A DNA stretch of 64,000 nucleotides from Terriglobia bacterium (GTDB lineage Bacteria; Acidobacteriota; Terriglobia; 20CM-2-55-15): NCBI GenBank assembly GCA_965198225.1, contig CBDAOY010000004.1, positions 128,001 through 192,000 of the forward strand, in the 5' to 3' direction. The notes under the pieces were generated by a model, which saw only the letters and a program-made list of their open reading frames with translations, was not told where the DNA came from and ran no database searches. The stretch's first letter is position 1; the number at the start of each line of letters is the position of its first letter. The translations under genes and the position numbers were made by a program. Positions 7,982 through 28,800 of the stretch are shown one piece after another.

Positions 7982-9310
7982 CAGACTGTGTGAAAAGTCC
8001 AAGTCGTGGATCGCTGATCCGGCAACACCGAAGGGCAAGCACGATGACGGACCCGTGGCGACGCAGATCACTCGGGGCTGCCAGCCTTTTCGGTGGCGTG
8101 AGGTGTTGCTGTGACTGGGAAACGCGGGATGGAGGCGGATTGTTGCGCCAAAAACGGGCGGATTACCCGGTCAAACCGCTGCGACGGCAATCAAGGCGGG
8201 AATTCCTACGAGGTTGATTGCGCGGCGCATGTTGTAGGCCAAGGCGGTGAGGCTGAACTCCCCGCGGACATTGCCGAGTCGGCGCGTCAGGAACGCGCCT
8301 TGGCCCATCCACTGCTTGATCGAACCGAAGGGATGCTCGACCGACTCCCGGCGACGATCCATCACCTCGGGCCGGGCGGCGAGACGGTTCGCCATGCGCT
8401 CCATCGTTGCTTCGTTCTCGAAGCGCGTGATGCGCCGATAGGTGTTCTTGGTACATCGTTCGCGTAGACCGCAGCCTCTGCATGCGGCGCGGTTGGCGTA
8501 ACTGACAAGATACGTGCCTGTGCGCGACTTACCGACGCTTCCGCGATACAACGGCACCAGGCGCTCACCAGCGGGGCACCGGTAGGTGTCCGTGGAGTCG
8601 TCGTATTGGAAATCGGACTTCGGAAAGTGGCCACTGCGTCTGGCCGTGCTCCGGTCGGGCTTCGGAACGTAGGGCGTGATCCCGGCGGCTTCGCAGTCCT
8701 CAATGTCTTCGATCTTGTAGTAGCCTCGGTCCGCGACCGCGTCGATCTCGTCGACAGCCAAGTTCTCCCGAGCCGCTGTGGCCGTCTCCGCGAGCAGACC
8801 GAGGTCCGAGACCTTGCTATGGACCTGCTGTTCGGCGATCAGGTTGTGCTCAGTGTCGACAGCGATCTGGACGTTGTAGCCGACTCCGACCCGTGTCCCG
8901 GAATGCATTGACCGGGAGTCCGGATCCGTAAGCGACAGCTGGGCTTCTGTATCGTCCAGCGTCTGCCGATGCCCCTCCAAGGTCTCCTTTCTCTTACGGA
9001 TCGATGCGCTTCTCCTGAAGATCCGCCACGGCAGCCGCTCTGCCGCCGGAATCCGCGTCGGCCTCGTTCACCTGCGAGGTAGCGGTCGAGTCGGTCGTCG
9101 ATACGCTGCAGGTCCGTCTTCAGCTTGGCCCGCGGAACGGTCCCGGTGGTTCACCGCCTTGATGCGCGTGTCCACGGCGATCAACTCCCGCCCTACAGGT
9201 CGAGTTCCCGGCACAACCGCACGAACCGCCGAAACACCGCCCGGAACGCATGCCGATTGTCGCGCCGGAAGTCGGCGATCCGAGCCCTGGACACCATCGC
9301 CTCGAGATGT
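7982..9310 (-). mobile_element. IS1182-family element, 3' part (truncated and frameshifted)
   Basis: Begins with IR CAGACTGTGTGAAAAGTC. Near-identical to the copy at 13869 up to ~8945, then has many small deletions. Confidence 0.9.
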
Positions 9311-10753
9311 TGGATGCGGGCTCCATCGACCAACGATTCAGCTACGTCATAAGGAGCGGCGATTGACGGCCCTTGCGAGGCGAGAACGCATCAAGCTCGG
9401 CGTAGTTATCGTGCAGGGCAATCTGGAAGCTTACCGGATTGTGAGAGCCGGGTCTTGCTGTGTTTGCACAACCGCACGGACGGCCCGGCCCGTGCGGTCG
9501 AGACCCTTCCTTCCAGAAGTAATTTCATCGAGGACGAGGTCACCGGCGACCGCCTCTGCGTTTTCGATCGTCCTGGCCTTAAGAGGGCGTCGAAAGCCTC
9601 AAGGTTTCATAGGCGGACAGCCCGCGCCGCTGTCGCCCCAGCGCTTCACCATTGATTGCGAAGCCCGCGCTTGAAGGAGGAACCGGTGGCAGCGCTCTGA
9701 TGAACTCCTGGAGGGCCTGTTGCGAGCGTACTGGATCCGTTCGAGATCTGGACGGTTGGTTCGCGCTTGAATTGGTCGCCTTCCAAGTTGTCGGGCGATG
9801 AGTTGCCTGACGACACTGAGATGTTGGTGCGGGACACCATCAGCTCCGGCTAAACGATGTCGTTTGCGAAGCGCAGGAGTACCAGGCCGTGATCGCTCGA
9901 CTACGTGATGCGCCACGCACCGTTTGTGGGCCGGGAGTTGCGTCGACTGGGCAGGCTACGTCCCGGCGAAGTGATGCGACCCGCTCCGCTGGCACCGGTC
10001 CAACACGCTCCTGGGGAGGGTCATCGTGAATCGTCGTCCGCACCGCGGCTCATGAGCCGCCATCCCGGCCCCGCACCCCGACCTCCGCCAACCGCTCTTT
10101 GCTCGAACGACCGGATGTCGGGTGCCTCGAGGCGAAGTGCGCGCCGTCGGCGCTGATCCTGCACGCGCACGTGCCGTCCGATCCCGCCGTGATGCACGCT
10201 TCGACCGGGCTGTTCCCCGACAGGTCGGCCGCGATTACAAGGAAGCCGTCCTCGCTCACCGGCACGCTGGCGATGCCGTCGCCGAAGGTCGAGCAGAAGA
10301 AGCGGACGATCGGCTCCGCGTGCCAGGCCGCCCACGGTGAAGCCCCGCGAATTATGGCTTCTCTGGATGCCGTCCAGGTCTCCCACGCTCAGGCGCTGTC
10401 GCTGACCCTTCGGTGGAGATGATCCCGCCGCAATAGGTGCAGGTTTGGGCTCGCTCGATCCGCTCCATGTAAGCCCGCTCCGTCGCGAAGTCACTTCGTG
10501 GAGGGTGTCTCAGTACCGGACTATCGTTCTCGATATCATCCACGCCAACGCATGCCCGGTGCCGGAGCGCACTCTTGCCTAATATTGTCCGAACTACCAC
10601 ACCGTCAAGCTGCATAGCCCTCCGAAACGCAAGTCACAGGCAACGACAGAAGTTTTCCGCAGGTTTTCCAGCCCCGCCCGCGGTCTGACTATTCATCTGT
10701 AACCTGGAGGTGGGTCCTTTTTACTCGATCGAGGCGGGCTCTTTTTTACGTTG

Positions 10754-18131: not shown

Positions 18132-19178
18132 CTACGCTGCAGCCGCAACGGCCTTTGTCATTCCCCGTGCCCTGTAGCTCTCCTCCTTCACCGTCATGGC
18201 CCAGATGATGCGTGCCATCCTGTTGGCCAGAGCCACCGCAACCACCTTCCTCGGCTTTTCGTCCAGCATCCGGCCAAGCCAGGGATCGGTGACCTTCCTC
18301 CGCCGGATGGCACTCGAGATGACCGCCGTCGCCCCCAGGTACAGGAGCCTCCGGATGTCGCGCTGTCCCATCTTTGTGATCCCTCCCAGCCGTTGGCGGC
18401 CACCCGTCGAGGATTCACGCGGCGTGATCCCGACCCATGCCGCAAAGTCACGTCCATTACGGAAGCTCTCCATCGGTGGCGCGAACGCGTGCACCGCCAT
18501 TGCCGTGAGCTCTCCCACCCCTGGAATCGTCATCAGGCGCCCGAGCGCCTCATCTTCCCTCACGATGCGACGGATCTCCCGGTCCAGCTCATCGATCTCC
18601 GCATCCAGATCGTGGGTCCGCTCGATGAGGCGGCGTATGGCGGGAGGCACCAGCGCCGGGAAACACTCTTCACGCTCCGCGAACACCTCCTCCAGCCTCC
18701 CGACGTTGTGGGTCCCAAGCGGAGCGACGAGTCCAAACTCCGCGAGATGACCCCGCAGCGCGTTGATCGTCTGTGTCCGCTGGCGCACCAGCAGTGCCCG
18801 GGCCCGGAACACCACCGATCGTGCCTGCTCCTCCTCGGTCTTCACGGCCACGAACCGCATCGTCGGCCGCTGGGCCGCCTCGACGATCGCTCCCGCGTCG
18901 TTGGCGTCATTCTTCTGCCTCTTGACGTACGGCTTCACATACATCGGGGGAATCAGGCGGACCTCGTGACCGATCTCCTGGATCATCCGCCCCCAATGAT
19001 GGGCGCTGCCGCACACTTCCATCACGACCCGGCAGACAGGCTGCTTGGCGAGGAACTCGAGTAGCTTCGGGCGCGTGAGCTGCCTGCGCAGCACAGGCTC
19101 ACCGCTTGCCGTGGCTCCATGCAGTTGGAAGTACCTCTTTGAAATGTCGATGCCGATGATGGTGATCACCTTGCCCAT
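18132..19178 (-). CDS. IS110-family DEDD transposase/recombinase
   Basis: GIDISK, VMEVCG, KNDANDA, IPGVG, SSTGG motifs. Confidence 0.93.
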   Translation of the reverse strand: MGKVITIIGIDISKRYFQLHGATASGEPVLRRQLTRPKLLEFLAKQPVCRVVMEVCGSAHHWGRMIQEIGHEVRLIPPMYVKPYVKRQKNDANDAGAIVEAAQRPTMRFVAVKTEEEQARSVVFRARALLVRQRTQTINALRGHLAEFGLVAPLGTHNVGRLEEVFAEREECFPALVPPAIRRLIERTHDLDAEIDELDREIRRIVREDEALGRLMTIPGVGELTAMAVHAFAPPMESFRNGRDFAAWVGITPRESSTGGRQRLGGITKMGQRDIRRLLYLGATAVISSAIRRRKVTDPWLGRMLDEKPRKVVAVALANRMARIIWAMTVKEESYRARGMTKAVAAAA

Positions 19179-19577
19179 GTATCCCTCCCTCTATCGTGTT
19201 CTGAACGCACCCCTTGTGCGTTCTGCTGACCCGGCCCATTCTGCCGCCGGGGAGCGGGGGCGTCCACTCCATCGAAACGCACAATGCGGAAGCCGACCCG
19301 CCGTTGAAACGGGGAAGGCTGCCAGCGGTCGGGAAGCGAGCGACGCGAGCACCGACTGGTTCCGCCGGGGTATTGGGCGGTGGCATGTATGGAAGAGGGG
19401 ATTGGACGCAACACGGGAAGCCCTGCCGGTGGCGTGGCACGCGCCAACCGACAGCCCGCGAGGGTCAGGTTGGGCCGACAGGGTGGCGGAGAGGTCCGCA
19501 GTACCAAGAAAGCCGGGTAATGCCGCGTGGAGGGAAGGGACCTCAGTTCGAGAGCAGCGCATGACGGAGGAAGGGCC

Positions 19578-20399
19578 ATGAGGACTGGCGAGAGCCTAAC
19601 AGCCTCGGAGAGAGTTCAGCGACTCCAGACGGCGCTACATGTAGAAAGCGAAGGAAGCCCTGGGCTTCCGGTTCTACTCTCTGAGCGACAAGGTGTGGCG
19701 CGACGACGTGCTCGCAGTCGCCTGGCAGGCCGTGCGACGCAACGGCGGCGCGACACGGGGTGGACGGCGAGACGGTCGCGGACATCGATGCGTTCGAGGT
19801 GGACCGGTGGCTGGGAGCACTGGCGCGGGACCTGAAGGAAGGGACCTATCGGCCGCATGCGGTTCGGCAGGTTCTCATCCCGAAGAAGCAACGAGGGAAG
19901 TTCCGGCCGTTGGGCATTCCGTGTCTCCGGGATCGGGTGGTGCAGACGGCGGCGATGCTGGTGTTATCGCCGATCTTCGAAGCCGACCTGCAACCGGAGC
20001 AGTATGCGTACCGGCCGGGCCGAGACGCGCATGACGCAGTCAGGCGCGTGCATCGGCTGCTGACGACGGGCCACCGGGAGGTGGTGGACGCCGACCTGTC
20101 GGACTACTTCGGCCAGATTCCGCACGCGGACCTGATGAAGTCCATCGCCCGGCGTGTGAGCGACGGGCGGCTGTTGGGCTGGGTCAAGGCGTGGCTGGAG
20201 ATGGCGGTGGAAGAGGACGACGGGCGCGGCGGTCGCCGCCGCACGAACCGGGCGCGTCACGAGCGGAAGGGGACCCCGCAAGGGTCTCCGATCTCGCCGC
20301 TGTTCAGCAACATCTACATGCGGCGCTTCATTCTGGGCTGGAAGGTGCTGGGCTACGCCCGGCACTTCAAGGCGGAAATCGTCAACTACGCGGATGACT
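19578..20399 (+). pseudogene. Intron A reverse transcriptase/maturase, frameshifted and cut at YADD
   Basis: VQRLQTALH, RPLGIP..DRVVQ, DADLSDYF, GTPQGSPISP, NYADD; frameshifts near 19643 and 19755. Confidence 0.9.
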
Positions 20400-22281
20400 G
20401 TGCGCCACGACGGTGCGTAGAGGAGGCGGTCATGTAGACGCCGAATCGACACAGCCTTGCTGCACGAGAGATGAGGGCGGGCCCCTCGGACTCGGGGTGC
20501 AGGCCCAGGGTCCAAACCGCCGGATGCTGCTCGGACCAAACGGCCGGGGTGGTGAGCGAGACGGAAAAGGCGGGACAAACCCGTCAGGTGAGCGATGGGA
20601 AGACGAACGTGAGTGAACCGCTGATGACGTGTCGAAAGCGTAGGGACGCCATCGAAACCAAGCTCCAGTCGTTGGCCTGGGATGAAGCTCGGGAGGAGCC
20701 TGTTGACTGCCCGAGCGGTGGCCGGCATGAAGGCGGCGTGAGCCCATTGCAGGCTCTTGTGCGGAACGTGGGAACCTATCGCCTCGATGTTAAGGGAGAA
20801 ATCCAAGTGGAGGACCCACAAGGATGAGAATACCGATGCGAGGCGAAGGGGCGGATGGGCTTGTAGGAGCGAAGAAGCCTGGTAATGCGGGTGGAGCAAA
20901 GGGGCCCAACTCTCTGGCCAAGGACGCCGGTCAACCAGCGATGGGAGGAGCCGGTGTCTGAGGCAAAGCCTTATGTGATTCCAAAGCAACTTGTCTGGGA
21001 ATCGTACCAGCGGGTGAAGGCGAACCGCGGTGCAGCGGGCGTGGACGGTGAGTCGCTGGCGGCGTTGGAGAAGGACCTGAAGGGGAATCTCTACAAGGTC
21101 TGGAACCGGATGTCGTCGGGCTCGTACTTCCCGCCGCCCGTGCGGCTCGTTGAGATACCGAAGGATAACGGCGGCAAGCGCCCACTCGGTATTCCCACTG
21201 TTGCCGACAGAGTGGCGCAAACGGTCGTGAAGATGGTGTTCGAGCCCTTGGTGGAGCCGGTATTCCACGAGGACTCGTACGGCTATCGCCCCGGCCGGTC
21301 TGCGCTCGATGCGGTGGGAGTGGCGAGGAAGCGCTGCTGGGGCGCGGATTGGGTCATCGACCTGGACATCAAAGCCTTCTTTGATTCCATCCCGCATGAC
21401 CTCATTGAGCGCGCCGTGGCCCACCACACTGACCTTCCGTGGGTCCGTCTGTACGTTGCGCGGTGGCTTCGTGTCGCTGTGCAGCGGCCAGACGGGATCC
21501 TGGAGGAGCGGACGACGGGCACGCCGCAAGGCGGAGTCGTCAGTCCGCTGCTGGCCAACCTGTTGCTGCACTACGCGTTCGACCTCTGGATGCAAAGGAC
21601 CTTTCCGAGCGTCCAGTTCGAGCGGTATGCGGACGATGCCATCGTCCATTGCAGGAGCGAACGGCAGGCGCGAGCAGTATTGGAGGCCATTCGGGGTCGG
21701 TTCGAGCAGTGCGGTTTGGAGCTTCATCCTGTGAAGACCCGTATCGTTTACTGCAAGGACGACGACCGGCCTGGGGACTACGAACACGTCAAGTTCGACT
21801 TCCTCGGGTACACCTTCCAACCTCGGCGGGCGAAGAATCGCTGTTGGAAATTCTTCGTGAGCTTCCTACCGGCGATCAGCGCCAAGGCCGCCAAGAAGAT
21901 CCGGGCCACCATCCGCGAATGGCGGATGGCGTCCACCAGGAACAACCAGCGTCTGGAGGACTTGGCACGGCTCATCAACCCGTCGGTACGTGGCTGGATG
22001 AACTACTACGGACGGTTCTACCGGTCGAAGTGTGTTCAGGTCCTTCGCCATCTCAACGAGGCCCTCGCGGCATGGGCGCGATGGAAATACAAGCGGTTTC
22101 GGCGACGTGAGCGTGCGTCGATGCACTGGCTGGGGCGCATCGCGCGACGGGACAGGCAGCTGTTTGTCCTGTGGCAACTCGGCATCGTACCCGAGGCTGG
22201 AGAGTAGGAGCCGGATGAGGCGAGAGTTTCACGTCCGGTTCTGGGAGGGCCCGGGGGGGAAGTTCCCCCGGGCTACTCGAC
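20400..22281 (+). mobile_element. Group II intron B, complete, class D (RmInt1-like)
   Basis: GTGCGCC start; domain V GAGCCGGATGAGGCGAGAGTTTCACGTCCGGTTC; domain VI ending ACTCGAC. Confidence 0.9.
20955..22207 (+). CDS. ltrA: Group II intron reverse transcriptase/maturase without endonuclease domain
   Basis: VKANRGAAGVDG, LYKVWNRMSSGSYFPPPV, GTPQGGVVSP, RYADD, FDFLG, GWMNYYG. Confidence 0.92.
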
Positions 22282-22749
22282 GTGTGCCACGAGCACTGAC
22301 GGGCGCAAGTCGGGTCAGTGCGCAACTGTTTCACTGATGAGGGAGGGCCCCTCGGAGCCGGCGTGCAGGAGCCGGCTTCAAACCACCTTCGGTGGCTGTG
22401 GTTAAAAGCCATGGTCGTGAGCGCAGAAGGAAAAGGCCCGGGAAGAACCGGGTCAGGTGGCTGGCAAGAAGAGGACCGCAAGGGAATCACTGATGACGTG
22501 TCGAAAGCGTAGGGACGATGTCAGAACCGTGGGGAGTCATTACCGCGGGATCAGTTCAGACGAGAATCTGCTTACGGGCTGAGCGGCATCCGGCATAAAG
22601 GTGGCCTGAGCTTGTCGAGAGGCGGTGAAACGGAACGTGGGAACCTGAGATTCCGATGCTAACGGAGACGCCACAAGTGGAAGAACCACGAGGGCCAGAG
22701 TACGAACCATCCTGGCTCGCGGAGTCTCAGGGGCGGAATGGCCCGTAGT
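22282..22749 (+). mobile_element. Group II intron C, 5' fragment (class D-like)
   Basis: GTGTGCC start. Domain I is colinear with intron B (GATGAGGGAGGGCCCCTCGG, TGATGACGTGTCGAAAGCGTAGGGACG, GGAACGTGGGAACC). Stops in domain III. Confidence 0.8.
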
Positions 22750-23331
22750 GCGTGCCTGGCAGCACGCGTTTCCGGCGGGTTAAAGTCCCGCTCGGCCCGA
22801 GGCCACGGGTCGATATCCAACAAGTGGGGGTAATGCCTCACTGGCCGGAGTGTAGGCAGGTATGGCAAATGCCTAAACGGGCACGAAGGCGAAAGCCGGA
22901 CACGGACAAGGCAAAGCTGGAGCCACCTACGGAAACTTTGGAGGGCAGGGCGCCCACCGCGAGGTGGGGTCTGAAGGGCATGAGGAGAACCACCGGGTCG
23001 TAATCGACGGGAGCCATCCCGAGGATGAACCGGTCGGCCAAAGATGGGGAATGGTCGAGCCCGCACTATTGGGGCGAAGGCGCATTGGTTCCACCCCATC
23101 GCACCAAGGTGTGTGCGGGCGACACGGTGGGGAAGAGACGCGAGTGACCCAGGGAGGCCTGGTATCGTCCGAGCGGAAGGTAAGGTCGAGATGATGTGGC
23201 ACCCAAGGCAGACGAAAGGGCGGGCAACCGAGAAGACAAACATCGACCTAGAGCCCTGCGCGGTAGGTGCGGATATAAGCGAGAGCGAAATTCCGGCCGA
23301 CGCGGTGTCAGGAATCGGATCGGGGAATAGT
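22750..23331 (+). mobile_element. Group II intron D1, 5' fragment (582 bp)
   Basis: Nearly identical to 23332-23910 with scattered substitutions and a 3-bp indel. Confidence 0.8.
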
Positions 23332-24235
23332 GCGTGCCTGGCAGCACGCGTTTCCGGCGGGTTAAAGTCCCGCTCGGCCCGAGGCCACGGGTCGATATCC
23401 AACAAGTGGGGGTAATGCCTCACTGGCCGAAGTGTAGACAGGTAGTGCAGATGCCTAAACGGGCACGAAGGCGAAAGCCGGATACGGCCAAGGCAAAGCT
23501 GGAGCCAGCTACGGAAACTTTGGAGGGCAGGGCGCCCACCGCGAGGTGGGGTCTGAAGGGCATGAGGAGAACCACCGGGTCGTAATCGACGGGAGCCATC
23601 CCGAGGATGAACCGGTCGGCCAAAGATGGGGAATGGTCGAGCCCGCACTATTGGGGCGAAGGCGCATTGGTTCCACCCCATCGCACCAAGGTGTGTGCGG
23701 GCGACACGGTGGAGAAGAGACGCGAGTGACCCAGGGAGGCCTGGTATCGTCCGAGCGGAAGGTAAGGTCGAGATGATGTGGCACCCGCAGACGAAAGGGC
23801 GGGCAACCGAGAAGACAAACATCGACCTAGAGCCCTGCGCGGTAGGTGCGGATATAAGCGAGAGCGAAATTCCGGCCGACGCGGTGTCAGGAATCGGATC
23901 GGGGAATAGTACTCAGGAACGAGACGGCAAACATAAGGTCTCGGATCGTTGCTTCGAGCAGCGGCGCTGGCGGGTCCAAAAGGCCCGTTGGAGGGGGAAG
24001 TCCCCGTACTCAGTCGTGAATGTGCGAGCGATGGGAAACGCGGAGATATCGTGGAATTGGATAGTTCCCTTAGCGAAAGACCCAAACGCGGTACGAACGA
24101 AGCCGCCACCTGCCGCCACACAGCGAATTCCGAACGAGGAGCAACTGAGGAAAGCGGCTTGCGGGAAAACCGCACGAGCCGTTTGATTGAGCGGACGGTG
24201 GAAGGGCCGATCGGCCCGACCACTTTCGACTCTAC
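23332..24235 (+). mobile_element. Group II intron D2, complete and ORF-less (~904 nt)
   Basis: GCGTGCC start; EBS1-like ACTATT; domain V AAAGCGGCTTGCGGGAAAACCGCACGAGCCGTTTG; ends GACTCTAC; no RT ORF. Confidence 0.8.
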
Positions 24236-25771
24236 ACTCCGAGGTCGGGAGAGCCGATCACATGGGGAAGCGGCCAGCAGAAGTGGACTCGTTCTTGGGA
24301 AACATGAGCTCCATGCAACGGGAGGATACGGTCCTCTATGCAACGAGAGGAACAACCAGTCATGGAAACGAAACTGGAACGAATAGCGGCGAAAGCTCGG
24401 AGTGAGCCAAAGCTCCGGTTCACGTCACTGGCGCATCATGTCACCCGAGAGCGTGTGTGGAAGAACCTGTGTCAAGTGCCCCGCAACACGGCTCCCGGAT
24501 GTGATGGTCAGAGGGTACCGGAGGCGAAGGAGGAATTCGGAGTCTGGGTGGAGCCAATGCTCCAGTCTGTTCACCAGAAGGGATATCGCGCTCCGCCGAT
24601 TCGGCGGGTGTATATCCCCAAGCCCGGCAAGCAGGAGAAACGTCCCCTGGGCGTGCCCTGTGTTCAAGATCGGGCCCTTCAGCGCAGCGTGGCCGAGGTA
24701 TTGGTCGCCATCTACGAGCAGGACTTCTTGCCCTGTTCCTTTGGTGGCCGGCCTGGGCTGGGCGCCCACAATGCACTGGCAACCCTCCATGAGGTGATTT
24801 CCGGATGCAAGGTGAGTTGGGTGTTGGAGGCGGACTTGAAGAACTTTTTCGGGAGTTTAGACCATGGATGGCTACTCCGCTTTGTGGAGCATCGAGTCGG
24901 AGATCCGCGGATCATCAGTCTGATACGACGATGGTTAAAGGCGGGCGTTTTCGAAGACGGGGAATTGCATTCGAACGAAGAGGGAACCCCGCAAGGTGGG
25001 TCGATCAGCGTTCTGCTGAGCAATCTGTACCTGCATTATGTGCTTGACCTGTGGTTTGACCGGATGGTCCGGCCACGCCTGAAGGGTGAAGCGTATCTGG
25101 TGCGGTACATCGACGACTTTGTCGTGTGTTTCCAATATCGGGACGATGCGCTTCGTTTCCAGAACGTTCTGCGCAAGCGACTGGGAAAGTTTGGACTGGT
25201 TCCGGAGCCGACCAAGACGAAGCTCGTCGAATTCGGCCGCTATGCCCAGCGCGATGTCGTCCGGCGCGGGAGAAAACGTCCAGAGACGATCTATTTTCTG
25301 GGCATGACCCTGTACTGTACGCGTAATCGCAAAGGCAATTTTAGAGTGGGACTGCGAACAGAGAAGTCTCGACTTCGACGCAGTCTGGCTCATCTACGCG
25401 GCGTGATGAGGCGAATGCGTCACTTGCCGGTCCGGGAGCAAGTGCACAATCTGAACCGAGTCTTGCGCGGGCACTACGCCTACTATGGCATTGCCGGGAA
25501 CCTCCGGGCTCTGCAGCACGTCGCTCGGGCCGTGGAACGTTACTGGCGCCAAATGCTCAGCAGTCGTAGTCGTGCAGGCTTCGTCCGGTGGGAAGTATTC
25601 AACCGGATTCAGCTGCACTTTCCGTTACAGCGTCCCAAGTTGGCTCTCCGCTATCGGGAGTTCCAGTCTCTCGCTGTGCTGTAAATCCAATTCTGAAGAG
25701 CGCAGTGCGGGAAATCCGCACGCTGCGTTCTGTGGGAGCCGGAGGCGGGCAACTGCCTCCGGCCACCCGGT
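24236..25771 (+). mobile_element. Group II intron E, 3' part (domain III to end), tentatively class E-like
   Basis: Domain III half ACTCCGAGGTCGGGAGAGCCGATCACATGGGGAAG, RT ORF, domain V GAGCGCAGTGCGGGAAATCCGCACGCTGCGTTC, end CACCCGGT. Confidence 0.8.
24362..25684 (+). CDS. ltrA: Group II intron reverse transcriptase/maturase
   Basis: RFTSLAHH, RPLGVP..DRALQ, EADLKNFF, GTPQGGSIS, RYIDD, RGHYAYYG. Confidence 0.92.
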   Translation: METKLERIAAKARSEPKLRFTSLAHHVTRERVWKNLCQVPRNTAPGCDGQRVPEAKEEFGVWVEPMLQSVHQKGYRAPPIRRVYIPKPGKQEKRPLGVPCVQDRALQRSVAEVLVAIYEQDFLPCSFGGRPGLGAHNALATLHEVISGCKVSWVLEADLKNFFGSLDHGWLLRFVEHRVGDPRIISLIRRWLKAGVFEDGELHSNEEGTPQGGSISVLLSNLYLHYVLDLWFDRMVRPRLKGEAYLVRYIDDFVVCFQYRDDALRFQNVLRKRLGKFGLVPEPTKTKLVEFGRYAQRDVVRRGRKRPETIYFLGMTLYCTRNRKGNFRVGLRTEKSRLRRSLAHLRGVMRRMRHLPVREQVHNLNRVLRGHYAYYGIAGNLRALQHVARAVERYWRQMLSSRSRAGFVRWEVFNRIQLHFPLQRPKLALRYREFQSLAVL

Positions 25772-25880
25772 GCGACTGGAAACGAAGCCACGGCGAGGAG
25801 TGAGGCACCGGAATCGGCGAAAGCCACCGGCAACAGCTACCCCCTTTGCCTACCGCCACCGCGCCAGTCGTCGACTCTAC
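25772..25880 (+). mobile_element. Domain VI / 3' end of a further group II intron (possibly A)
   Basis: Long hairpin CGACTGG...CCAGTCG ending TCGACTCTAC. Confidence 0.65.
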
Positions 25881-28800
25881 AACGGATGGGTTGAAGTTCT
25901 GGGTACAGGGCGCGTTACAGGTTTTCTCGCATACTCGGAATCCAATGCCGGCGGTGTTGCCGTCGTTCCGGTCCAGAATCAACCCGGCCCGCGACTCCTA
26001 TTCGGGCACATCGCTGCGCGCGTTCCATGGTCGACCGGTATAGCGGTCCTGAACGCGACAGCGACGGACACAGTCGTCGAGTTTTTTGCCATCACACCCG
26101 GCGGCGCCTTGATGGGCGGTCCCGAAGAGTCACCGCTTGCCCGCGTCGAACTTCCCTCAGGAACCAAAATTGCCAAGCTCATCAATGAATTGATACCGAA
26201 CACAGAGGGCCTAGTGGCGGACGGGGGCTTCGTCTATGCCCGAACGACGAATGATGTCGAGATCTATGGAATCGAACTGTTTTTCCTCCGCAACCTCTTT
26301 GTCTTCTCCAACGTGTCTGCGGACATCAGCATTCCGTTCGAACCGCCCGTAAGAAACCTCCCGATGCCGATGGACGGGACGTTGACGCCGGGCGACCTGC
26401 TGGCGGGGACGATCGACGCGCCGGGCGAGGTCGACGTGGTGACCCTGGCTGGGCAGACCAACGACAGAATCGTGTTGACGTTGGTCGAGACGACGGACTG
26501 GGGCGGCTTCCTCGGGGCGAATGATGTGCAGGCGACGCTGTTTGCGCCGAGCGGCGCCGAGCTCGAGGTGTTCGATTCGGACAGCCAGCAGCAGTTCACG
26601 CTCGCGGAGACGGGCGTCTACGTCATCCAGGTGAATGCGAACAACCTGGTCAGCACGGGGTCGTACACGCTGGGGCTGGAGCGGCTCGACCCGGTGGGGC
26701 CGCTCGACGGGACCTTGACGCCGGGCGACCTGCTGGCGGGGGCGATCGACGCGCCGGGCGAGGTCGACGTGGTGACCCTGGCTGGGCAGACCAACGACAG
26801 AATCGTGTTGACGTTGGTCGAGACGACGGACTGGGGCGGCTTCCTCGGGACGAATGATGCGCAGGCGACGCTGTTTGCGCCGAGCGGCGCCGAGCTCGAG
26901 GTGTTCGAATCGGACAGCCAGCAGCAGTTCACGCTCGCGGAGACGGGCGTCTACGTCATCCAGGTGAATGCGAACAACCTGGTCAGCGCCGGGTCGTACA
27001 CCCTGGGCCTGGAGCGGCTCCACCCGTTGGGGCCGCTTGACGGGACGTTGACGCCGGGCAACCTGCTGGCGGGGGCGATCGACGCGCCGGGCAAGGTCGA
27101 CGTGGTGACCCTGGCTGGGCAGACCAACGACAGAATCGTGTTGACGTTGGTCGAGACGACGAACTGGGGCGGCTCCTTCGGGGCGAATGATGTGCAGGTG
27201 ACGCTGTTTGCGCCGAGCGGTGCCGAGCTGGGGGTGTTCGATTCGGACAGCCAGCAGCAGTTCACGCTCGCGGAGTCAGGCGTCTACGTCATCCAGGTGA
27301 ACGCGAACAACCTGGTCAGCATCGGGTCGTACGCCGTGGGGCTGGAGCGGCTCCACCCGGTGGGGCCGCTGGACGGGACGTTGACGGTGGGCGACCTGCT
27401 GGCGGGGGCGATCGACGCGCCGGGCGAGGTCGACGTGGTGACCCTGACTGGGCAGACCAACGACATAATCGTGGTGACGTTGGTCGAGACAGGGGCGAAT
27501 GATGTGCATGCGAGGCTGATTGCGCCGAGCGGCGCGGAGCTCGGGGTGTTCGCGGACGTCGGGCAGCAGTTCACGCTCGGGGAGACGGGCGTCTACATCA
27601 TCCAGGTGAGCACGAACGACCTGATCAGCACGGGGTCGTACACCCTGGGGCTGGAGCGGCTCGACGCGGCCTGTAGCGCAAGCCGGCCTTGCTTTACCGA
27701 CGTGACCGCGCAGGCCGGCCTCCTTCAAGGCCCGCCGCCGGATGGCCTGCCGTTCGCCCAGGTGACCGACGTCATGACCGGAGCCGCCGCCGCCGGGGAC
27801 ATTGATAATGACGGCAACGTAGATTTGTATGTATCCCGAATCGATGCCCTCGATTCACTCTATCGAAACAAAGGCGATGGAACGTTCGAGGACATTGCGA
27901 CCGCTTCCGGTATCAATCGCGGCAGCAATTCCAACGGGGCCGCCTTCGGCGACATCGACAACGATGGCGACCTGGACTTATACGTAACCGCCGTGTCGTC
28001 CGCCGAACGAGGCACCCAAACTAGATTCTATTTGTATGTCAATGACGGCCGTGGCAATTTCAGTGAAGAAGCGATTAGTCGCGGTGCGGCGATTGCAGGC
28101 GCCGATGCACATCAGGGCTGGAGCGTGGCGTTCGGGGACTACGACAGTGACGGATACTTGGACATCCACGTCTGCGAATGGCGACTGGACTCCTTGAATT
28201 CCAGCGCTGCGCTGTCCAATTCGAGGCTTCTGCGGAACCTCGGCAGCGCTAATCCCGGAGCGTTTGAGGACGTCACAGTAGAGGCAGGTGTCGCTCTCGA
28301 CGCGGTCCAGGGCAAGTTGCGCGATCCGCAAAGAGGAACGTTCAGTTTCAGCTCAAACATCGTCGACATGGACGGCGACAGCCATCCAGACCTGATTATC
28401 GCGGCAGATTTCGGCGAGAGCCGCCTGTTCTGGAACAACGGGGACGGAACATTCACGGACGGCACCGCAGCCGCGGGAGTCGGTCTCGATGAGAACGGCA
28501 TGGGCTCGGCCGTCGGCGATATCAACGGTGATGGTCTCCTGGATTGGTTTGTCACGTCGATCTCAGGAGGCCTTTTACCTCCGTACACCGGTAACTTCAT
28601 GTACCTCAACAACGGCGATCGGACCTTCACTGACTATACCGAGGCGGCCGGCGTGCGGGACGGGTTCTGGGGATGGGGCGCGACTTTCCTGGACTATGAC
28701 AACGACGGCGACCTGGATCTGACGATGGTGAACGGGTTTCCGAACTCTGTGTTCAGCCTGATCTCGTGTTGCAATCCGATGCGGTTTTGGGAAAACGATG

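Follow-up and report, generated by a model that had tools for sequence, protein, structure and literature searches.

A conserved domain III motif as the possible homing site of a putative non-autonomous group II intron, in other group II introns and in itself

In a stretch of 64,000 nucleotides (nt) from a Terriglobia bacterium (NCBI GenBank assembly GCA_965198225.1, contig CBDAOY010000004.1, positions 128,001 to 192,000 of the forward strand; hereafter the window), we analyzed a nest of group II introns built around two copies, D1 and D2, of an element here called D. The results make it highly probable that D is a non-autonomous intron whose homing site is a motif conserved in domain III across classes of group II introns, its own kind included. 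In the window, D1 and D2 adjoin each other between C5', the 5' part of an intron C, and E3, the 3' part of an intron E. According to the mechanism we propose, D would have arisen from a longer sibling, D-FL, by loss of an open reading frame (ORF) of about 1250 nt for a reverse transcriptase (RT)/maturase in domain IV, and the D RNA, bound and mobilized in trans most likely by the D-FL protein, would retrohome by reverse splicing. The loop of its exon-binding site 1 (EBS1), ACUAUU (ACUAUG in D-FL and in a subfamily of D), would pair with NRUAGU as intron-binding site 1 (IBS1), with A after the cut, and since in many group II introns NRUAGU makes up the 5' strand of an asymmetric internal loop that lies just above domain III's basal helix, each insertion would land in the core of a ribozyme and copies landing in D would give D-in-D nests. 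The source assembly has 6.41 Mb in 9 contigs with 60.4% G+C, and positions outside the window are given by contig, as in C5:889958.

Element D and its ORF-bearing sibling

D2 (23332-24235, + strand) is a complete ORF-less group II intron of 904 nt, GCGUG...CUCUAC, whose ends follow from exact empty sites and from the genomic copies. By BLAST, it is 100% identical over all 904 nt to two further copies in the genome; the inserted unit always spans GCGTGCC to CGACTCTAC, and in the window the 3' end CTCTAC lies at 24230-24235 and is followed by ACTCCGAGG. The rebuilt empty site was found in the genome as an exact 28-nt match seven times in a host intron, H, and 14 times in the domain III of D itself, so that the unit can only be GCGTG...CTCTAC, which rules out as its start the GTGCG that lies two bases farther upstream. 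The first-pass annotation, made from the letters of the window, had placed the 5' end at this non-canonical GCGUG and had named GUGCG as the alternative splice start; the empty sites decide for the former, and the coordinates it gave for the D1 start (22750), for D2 (23332-24235), for the loop ACTATT (23065-23070 and 23647-23652) and for the site AATAGT/ACTC (23905-23914; the slash marks the cut) were all found to be correct.

The longest ORF of D2 (23626-24186) has no Pfam match and no protein match to D2 was obtained, which agrees with the earlier description of an intron without an RT ORF; the RT/maturase ORF in domain IV that is expected of a mobile intron is absent from D2 and present in D-FL. 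Domains V and VI, also described before, were recovered from an RF00029 alignment of an identical sequence, scoring below the gathering score, and from local folds. Domain V (24153-24186, + strand), with an AGC triad, a 2-nt bulge and a GAAAA loop, is supported by that alignment and by the minimum free energy (MFE) fold, and domain VI (24189-24235, + strand) by the MFE fold, which predicts that the A at 24229 is bulged; six bases come after it, so that it is seventh from the 3' end and fits a branch point 7-8 nt from the end. The last 86 nt of D2 (24150-24235) are identical to those of a D copy that scores 36.9 bits (E 3.3e-4) on RF00029, where the gathering score is 40. The domain I of D matches RF02001 weakly (24.5 bits; 32.4 bits for a 77%-identical relative). 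The MFE fold of the whole molecule gave no clean map of six domains, and the structure of D is taken from local folds. Judged by these features, D2 is a discrete ORF-less group II intron, presumably one that splices.

D-FL is a 2154-nt sibling that consists of D plus about 1250 nt between D positions 795 and 798, as BLAST showed at three loci; the corresponding break in D2, the point in domain IV where D-FL carries its RT/maturase ORF, is at 24126-24129 (+ strand). Two copies are intact (C6:343788-345941 and C5:501714-503866, 99.3% alike) and the third is rearranged and frameshifted. Outside the ORF, the D and D-FL RNAs are 96-97% identical. The ORF encodes 402 amino acids (aa) with RVT_1 and GIIM and scores 390 bits on TIGR04416 (cut-off 300); the protein ends with the maturase domain and has no endonuclease (En) domain. 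Compared with solved RTs, it scores 221 bits with 7uim, 216 with the GsI-IIC RT, 155 with 6me0 and 136 with LtrA, and is thus predicted to be an En-less RT/maturase closest to IIC enzymes among these. D accordingly reads as a deletion derivative of D-FL, and D-FL is the likely donor in trans of the RT/maturase that D would need.

A different donor has to be considered, since D is always embedded in an RT-encoding host, whose protein is made nearby, and since the sixth base of its EBS1 is U where D-FL has G; by this account the RTs of the hosts (E, H, G and others) would mobilize D. A group II maturase is usually specific to its own RNA, and the near identity of the D and D-FL RNAs outside the ORF contrasts with the distance between the proteins, host RTs being only 31-39% identical to the D-FL RT, the nearest in this genome being those of hosts G and H at 39%. 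In Thermosynechococcus elongatus, moreover, the ORF-less introns are mobilized by the proteins of closely related introns, according to the accessible text of PMC2882425. Host RTs are for these reasons an unlikely source. The earlier claim that D is non-autonomous is supported and borrowing of an RT in trans remains likely, but the idea that each resident RT might be the donor gives way to D-FL, which is the likelier one with two intact copies and an RNA so close to that of D.

The domain III target and the sites occupied

The BLAST search of D2 against the genome returned 34 segments, among them 20 D 5' ends, of which 19 lie directly after TAGT or TAAT and 18 are at RUAGU/A (GUAAU in one) within the domain III of a group II intron, either D or another one. 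Six of these are in intron E (flank GATAGT), four in D itself (AATAGT), two in intron C (CGTAGT), two in intron G (one D and one D-FL; GATAGT), one each in introns F, H and I (CATAGT) and one, a D-FL, in intron K (CGTAAT). The remaining two are a 5' end antisense within an ORF for a 234-aa membrane protein (AGTAGT) and one with an unrelated flank at C5:3834, which is probably due to a deletion. Wherever the 3' junction is preserved, the base after D is A. A genome-wide tabulation of flanks had been proposed in the first-pass annotation as the check on its reading, and its outcome is that the copies lie mostly inside intron domain III.

The location in domain III is supported by the bases around the cut. 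The free target of D2 itself (23895-23911, + strand) consists of CGGAT (23895-23899), a spacer CGGGGA (23900-23905), ATAGT (23906-23910) and A (23911), and the spacer pairs at all six positions with TCCCCG 91 nt downstream, which forms the basal helix of D's domain III; the same target is filled in four other D copies. The spacer in front of RUAGU differs in sequence from one host to the next, yet in E, F, I, D and C all six of its bases find their complement 35-91 nt downstream; the complement is 5/6 in G and H and 4/6 at the non-intron site. Differing spacers with conserved complements amount to compensatory covariation, and the complementarity places the cut in an asymmetric internal loop, on its 5' strand and immediately above the basal helix. 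In host E, the RT ORF begins 102 nt past the cut and about 50 nt past the end of the hairpin domain, and in D this domain precedes the point at which the ORF is found in D-FL, so that the target hairpin is the last domain before domain IV and is thus domain III, where the junctions had been placed before.

Pairing with the target was traced to a loop that had already been proposed as EBS1. ACUAUU lies at 23065-23070 (+ strand) in D1 and at 23647-23652 (+ strand) in D2, where it is complementary to AAUAGU and caps a hairpin at 23637-23664. Rfam aligned the ACUAUU hairpin of D to the terminal hairpin of RF02001, that is, to its EBS1 hairpin, and in hosts H (CAAC with GUUG) and G (UUGA with UCAG) the homologous loop pairs with the 5' exon of the host intron itself. 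The 4-bp stem carries two compensatory changes in relatives (C-G to U-A, loci L046 and L047), and the loop varies together with the flank: a 77%-identical relative in genome G032 has the loop CCAAAG and the flank CTTTGG, and within the source genome the sixth loop base covaries with target position -6. The ORF-less copies with loop G (ACUAUG, the form also present in D-FL, while the other D copies have ACUAUU) are at CATAGT in 3/3 cases, and those with loop U are at A/G-ATAGT or AGTAGT in 12/15, the exceptions being two at CGTAGT and the copy at C5:3834. This covariation, read from sequence, identifies ACUAUU or ACUAUG as the EBS1 that pairs with NRUAGU as IBS1. Two introns of the window, A and B, were said to mismatch at this point and to be free of D; their sequences are as had been stated (CGCAGT at 19497-19502 in A and TGTAGG at 20862-20867 in B), and both are uninterrupted. 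B, reading GUAGG, has G next to the cut where U is required, and A reads GCAGU.

Several points weigh against the homing of D into domain III as proposed here. Two of the 20 D copies are outside recognizable intron sites. The genome holds 1672 free RTAGTA sites, so that 6-7 paired bases are insufficient and an additional determinant is needed; when CRGAY at -16 to -12 is added, the free sites fall to 18 (14 in D itself, 4 elsewhere), with 16/20 of the occupied sites, the non-intron site included, fitting the strict motif and 19/20 a relaxed one. The 5' end GCGUG, shared by D, D-FL, the copies in a second genome (G020) and one Terriglobia metagenome-assembled genome (MAG), deviates from the usual GUGYG. 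RF00029 gave no match on D2 itself, even though the identical 86 nt were scored elsewhere. Both the splicing and the mobility of D are conclusions from sequence. No joint skipping D was found at a locus of D in E (L006:3000-7300) in two RNA-library and two DNA runs, used as assembled contigs out of 24 public sequencing runs found, with several bins uncovered, and this absence speaks neither for nor against splicing; that locus was chosen for the comparison instead of the window because the window has a long tandem repeat. Finally, the layout C5'-D1-D2-E3 is known only from the assembly (9 contigs, 2.75% contamination), and the recombination history given below for it is a parsimonious reconstruction in which the order of events is inferred.

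As for the 5' end, the five bases GCGTG of D correspond one by one to GTGTG or GTGCG at the start of relatives from other genomes. We also scanned metagenomes with a 5'-end motif that excluded the flank, which gave at least 120 stretches; of the 80 listed, 78 include a flank of 20 nt or more and 68 start with G-Y-G-Y-G, and among these 68 listed matches the start is GTGTG in 58, GTGCG in 6 and GCGTG in 4. The 5' end of D may accordingly be read as a U2-to-C variant of the usual group II start, and the many near-identical copies suggest that this variant is tolerated.

As for specificity, pairing of CRGAY with GUCUG at D positions 219-223 was considered and rejected: in those 19 of the 68 listed metagenome relatives where the search pattern found the GUCUG motif, GUCUG is near-invariant while the target varies, and the two do not covary. 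The additional determinant could be protein contacts, the structure of the target or selection, and the conservation of CRGAY is compatible both with recognition by the protein and with plain conservation of J2/3 in the hosts. That the specificity of D is well above that of 6-7 paired bases, together with the fact that its target is single-stranded in the fold of the host RNA, would also suit reverse splicing into the folded RNA of a host intron, followed by reverse transcription and recombination, in place of retrohoming into DNA. The sole non-intron copy argues otherwise, as it is antisense to its ORF and its site has no such fold (spacer complement 4/6), and IIC-type enzymes, to which the relatives of the D-FL RT belong, act on DNA. 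We therefore consider insertion through host RNA improbable, and retrohoming of D into DNA is retained as the predicted route.

The hosts differ widely. By Rfam matches to domains I-IV (D1-D4), E, F and I belong to RF02005, G and H to RF02001, C and K to RF01999, and the rearranged D-FL copy sits in an intron of RF02003, so that the assigned hosts of D and D-FL cover at least four classes, in keeping with the earlier claim that D hits a conserved domain III motif across intron classes and in itself. The definition of a twintron, a complete inner intron together with an uninterrupted form of the outer one, applies to D in H, with seven empty copies of H, and to D in D, with 14 empty sites. Complete D-in-D nests, consisting of D positions 1-579, a whole D and D positions 580-904, were found at C6:840163-841975, C5:62160-64012 and C8:158737-160383 and also in genome G020. 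It is hardly credible that a single old D insertion was inherited while its host introns multiplied, so that the shared position would be due to common descent: the six E copies do share identical 3' parts, all with D, and a composite of E and D may have spread for this host, but the hosts as a whole fall in those unrelated Rfam classes, H is filled in one copy and empty in seven, of two copies of one G-type site, D occupies the first and D-FL the second, the metagenome relatives, among the matches listed, have 44 distinct flanks, and one D copy is in a non-intron ORF with the same motif.

Three loci may be described in addition. The nest at C8:158737-160383 (L015) is a complete D-in-D nest, antisense in the ORF for the 234-aa hydrophobic protein, and is the only clear non-intron site; it still reads CGGAC, six bases and GTAGT/A. 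An isolated 47-nt match to the 3' end of D (positions 857-904) at C6:885611-885657 ends with CTCTAC in an unrelated context and may be a 5'-truncated insertion. An uninvaded E-like intron at C5:817013-818778 (L007, about 8014-9770), whose 3' part is 91.5% identical to E3, lacks, at the homologous point, 11 nt that hold the spacer and IBS1, and without them the basal helix of its domain III is unable to form; the intron may have escaped D as a variant, may bear the scar left by an imprecise loss of D, or may be another chimera.

The nest in the window and its history

Rfam detected five group II pieces between 17.6 and 25.8 kb of the window. The outermost is an A-type intron (RF02003) that begins at about 17572 and whose RT ORF runs to its YADD codons at 20399; there it is interrupted by intron B (20400-22282; RF01999, with an RT ORF and domains V and VI), which is followed by C5' (22283-22749, + strand, 467 nt), comprising domains I and II and the 5' strand of domain III of intron C (RF01999, 106.6 bits at 22339-22458). 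C5' ends in the target CGGAA-TGGCCC-GTAGT (22733-22749), and in the copy of C in genome G020 all six bases of the spacer TGGCCC are matched by a complement that lies 36 nt downstream (6/6). D1 (22750-23331, + strand) begins after GCCCGTAGT and holds the 5'-terminal 582 nt of a copy of D, which breaks off at the target in its own domain III (AATAGT, 23326-23331) and is without domains IV-VI. After D2 comes E3 (24236-25771, + strand, 1536 nt), which is intron E from the internal loop of domain III onward, with an RT ORF at 24338-25684 (RVT_1 and GIIM; TIGR04416 317 bits) and domains V and VI at 25696-25771 (RF00029 47.1 bits). The last 109 nt of the outermost A-type intron (25772-25880, + strand) close the nest.

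D1 is 97.9% identical to D2 positions 1-579, with nine substitutions and an insertion of AAG. Of the nine substitution states, four also occur in the D copies of F, H, I and C, and another three in those of F, H or I, so that D1 and D2 come from different sublineages of D. A tandem duplication by slippage at the microhomology TAGT, or an artefact of assembly, is accordingly very unlikely, even though the repeat starts 4 nt before D1, at the shared TAGT, and D1 is without its 3' part in a structure taken locally from the assembly; nine substitutions and a 3-nt insertion separate the two copies, 7/9 of the D1 states recur in other copies, and complete D-in-D nests exist at three other loci and in G020.

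The succession C5'-D1-D2-E3 had been taken as the result of three independent insertions, and this was not borne out, whereas the assumption that C and E are different introns was. In genome G020, C5' and a D at the same site are followed by C's own B-like 3' half, and in the source genome E3 normally follows a 5' part of the RF02005 class; E3 of the window is 100% identical to five other copies, of which four come after D in an RF02005-class 5' part of E and one (C5:890864) comes after C5', as in the window. The layout of C in G020 and the usual context of E3 together indicate that C5' and E3 of the window are halves of two introns joined through D. The paralogous locus C5:888811-892509 has the order C5'-D-E3, and the D within it (C5:889958) switches sublineage between positions 115 and 119, which reads as the footprint of a crossover inside D. 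These three lines, G020, the D sublineages and the paralogous locus, favor a nest followed by recombination through D.

The position of E at the end of A and that of C in the ORF of A point to the simplest history, in which a single A-type intron held both C with a D, later re-invaded, and E with a D, and D then recombined with D. A D1 resident in C would first have been invaded at its own domain III by D2, from another sublineage; homologous recombination between D copies would then have joined this nest to the D in the downstream intron E of the same A-type intron, and in doing so would have removed the 3' part of D1, the 3' half of C, the rest of A's ORF with its domain V, and the 5' half of E.

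Homing of introns into introns is seen at other joints of the nest as well. B and C, which are both RF01999 and share about 70-80% of their domain I sequence, follow each other head to tail (joints 20399/20400 and 22282/22283), both at one point of A's RT ORF just past the YADD codons, as though an intron had homed twice in succession into a single site of the ORF of another intron. E-type introns sit exactly before the 109-nt tail, at the 3' edge of A's domain V match, and this placement implies that E likewise homes into another intron. The tail occurs in 11 copies at 100% identity, including that of the window (also at C5:743295-743403 and C6:5959-6067), several of them directly after E 3' ends and others after an uninterrupted A-type domain V match. 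A second chimera of two classes surrounds the D-FL copy at C5:501714-503866 (L004), with the 5' part of K (RF01999) and a 3' flank as in I (RF02005).

Relatives of D and comparison with known systems

D copies 98-100% identical to those of the window, including a nest inside E, occur in G020 (C24:1863-3670 and C9:15698-16602), a genome of the same family as the source and of another genus, and suggest either that D was transferred recently or that the two genomes are very closely related. A search with the D-FL protein, covering one genome per species, found 19 loci at 53-94% identity, in MAGs labeled Terriglobia, Desulfobacterales, delta proteobacterium, NC10, Alphaproteobacteria, Nitrospinota, Pyrinomonadaceae, Geminicoccaceae and Stellaceae. 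The EBS1 hairpin, where found, carries ACTATG in 11/12; of the 11 relatives with a defined 5' end, ten have an RTAGT flank and seven an Rfam D1-D4 match 150-450 nt upstream on the same strand, from four families. The metagenome relatives, among the matches listed, show an RTAGT flank in 46/68 (44 distinct flanks), with most others one base off, and the loop ACTATG in 35 of the 57 contigs that are long enough; among the first 20 listed contigs with at least 600 nt upstream, nine show, on the same strand and just upstream, a match to D1-D4 of group II introns. Homing into domain III appears, from these flanks and loops, to be a habit of the whole D-FL clade, in several phyla and beyond this genome. 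The relatives in G032 (L031 and L028; 77-83% identical), with EBS1 CCAAAG, stand after CTTTGG at the edge of a repeat that is not recognizably group II, one copy directly after the domain VI of another intron; given their differing EBS1, they are best read as retargeted members and not as counter-examples.

Class C introns are inserted just downstream of a terminator-like or attC hairpin and have an IBS1 of 3-4 nt. D resembles them in that the D-FL RT is without En and has its best solved relatives among IIC, and in that its domain I weakly matches RF02001 with a similar 5'-terminal hairpin. It differs in the AGC triad of its domain V, where host H has CGC in the same alignment, in an EBS1 of six bases against about four, in a larger RNA with a domain III of about 100 nt, and in its sites, which are inside domain III and not after terminator hairpins, the place where class C introns insert and where hosts G and H indeed sit. 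The twintrons of Euglena chloroplasts are introns within introns of which the inner one leaves first; they differ from D in being organellar and degenerate, with no single conserved ribozyme motif, as generally described, as their common target. Introns of Methanosarcina acetivorans are said, in the title of a 2003 report by Dai and Zimmerly, to home into the ORFs of related introns, which, going by that title, is a target different from an RNA motif conserved across classes.

The nested arrays of M. acetivorans arise through repeated homing and are trimmed by recombination, as far as described in the sections available of PMC4424553, and the same dynamics of nesting and recombination would account for the window. 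In Trichodesmium, the available text of PMC4649490 places an inner intron in domain I of its host. The closest parallel is in T. elongatus, where the ORF-less TeI3 (F3) introns lie between the first and the second ATG of the ORFs of TeI4 (F1) and are mobilized in trans (Mohr et al. 2010, PMC2882425). [quoted passage not shown] The same part of the paper gives a site in domain IV and hosts from one related family (PMC2882425), whereas D uses a loop in the core of domain III, has hosts of at least four classes, invades itself and belongs to a clade with this habit in several phyla. No report of homing into domain III was found in the literature, subscription journals and supplements being outside the search, and an introduction of 2025 that lists specialized bacterial lineages, in the part available, names no domain III homer (PMC12584367). 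Homing of introns into introns is thus already known, and what appears new is a core motif of domain III, across classes, as the target.

Group II introns have been known to hide in mobile elements, a few of them homing into the ORF region of close relatives. A broader proposal, to which we give an even chance, is that a clade which is sister to class C and present in several phyla lives as an obligate parasite on other group II introns, its near-invariant EBS1 ACUAUG being fixed on the domain III motif so that introns of any class, and the parasite itself, are potential hosts. Such a clade would spawn ORF-less miniatures, inactivate the splicing of its hosts or make it conditional, select for escape variants of domain III, and supply a portable homology by which intron halves are shuffled across classes, as in the C/E and K/I chimeras. 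If this is true, the target is a motif that every group II intron must keep, which would give the parasite a host range over intron classes and phyla and unlimited nesting in itself. The D system would be useful for studying how an En-less IIC-like ribonucleoprotein obtains high specificity from short pairing, whether splicing of the inner intron gates the activity of the outer one, how hyperparasitism and recombination through shared inserts reshape intron populations, and how ORF-less derivatives stay mobile. With 904 nt and a candidate partner protein in D-FL, the D RNA is also a compact candidate for structural and retargeting work.

Three further observations concern A-type introns and the surroundings of the nest. 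An IS110-family transposase gene (Transposase_20, DEDD_Tnp_IS110) lies at 18132-19178 on the minus strand, inside the 5' part of intron A. At locus L011 (C6:837000-846000), around 1837-2781, the D1-D4 and domain V matches of an A-type intron are only about 900 nt apart, with most of the ORF region missing by BLAST, and this is probably an ORF-less derivative of A. Downstream of the nest, two tandem units of 333 nt that are 97% alike (26366-26998) are present within a large gene with FG-GAP and ASPIC/UnbV.

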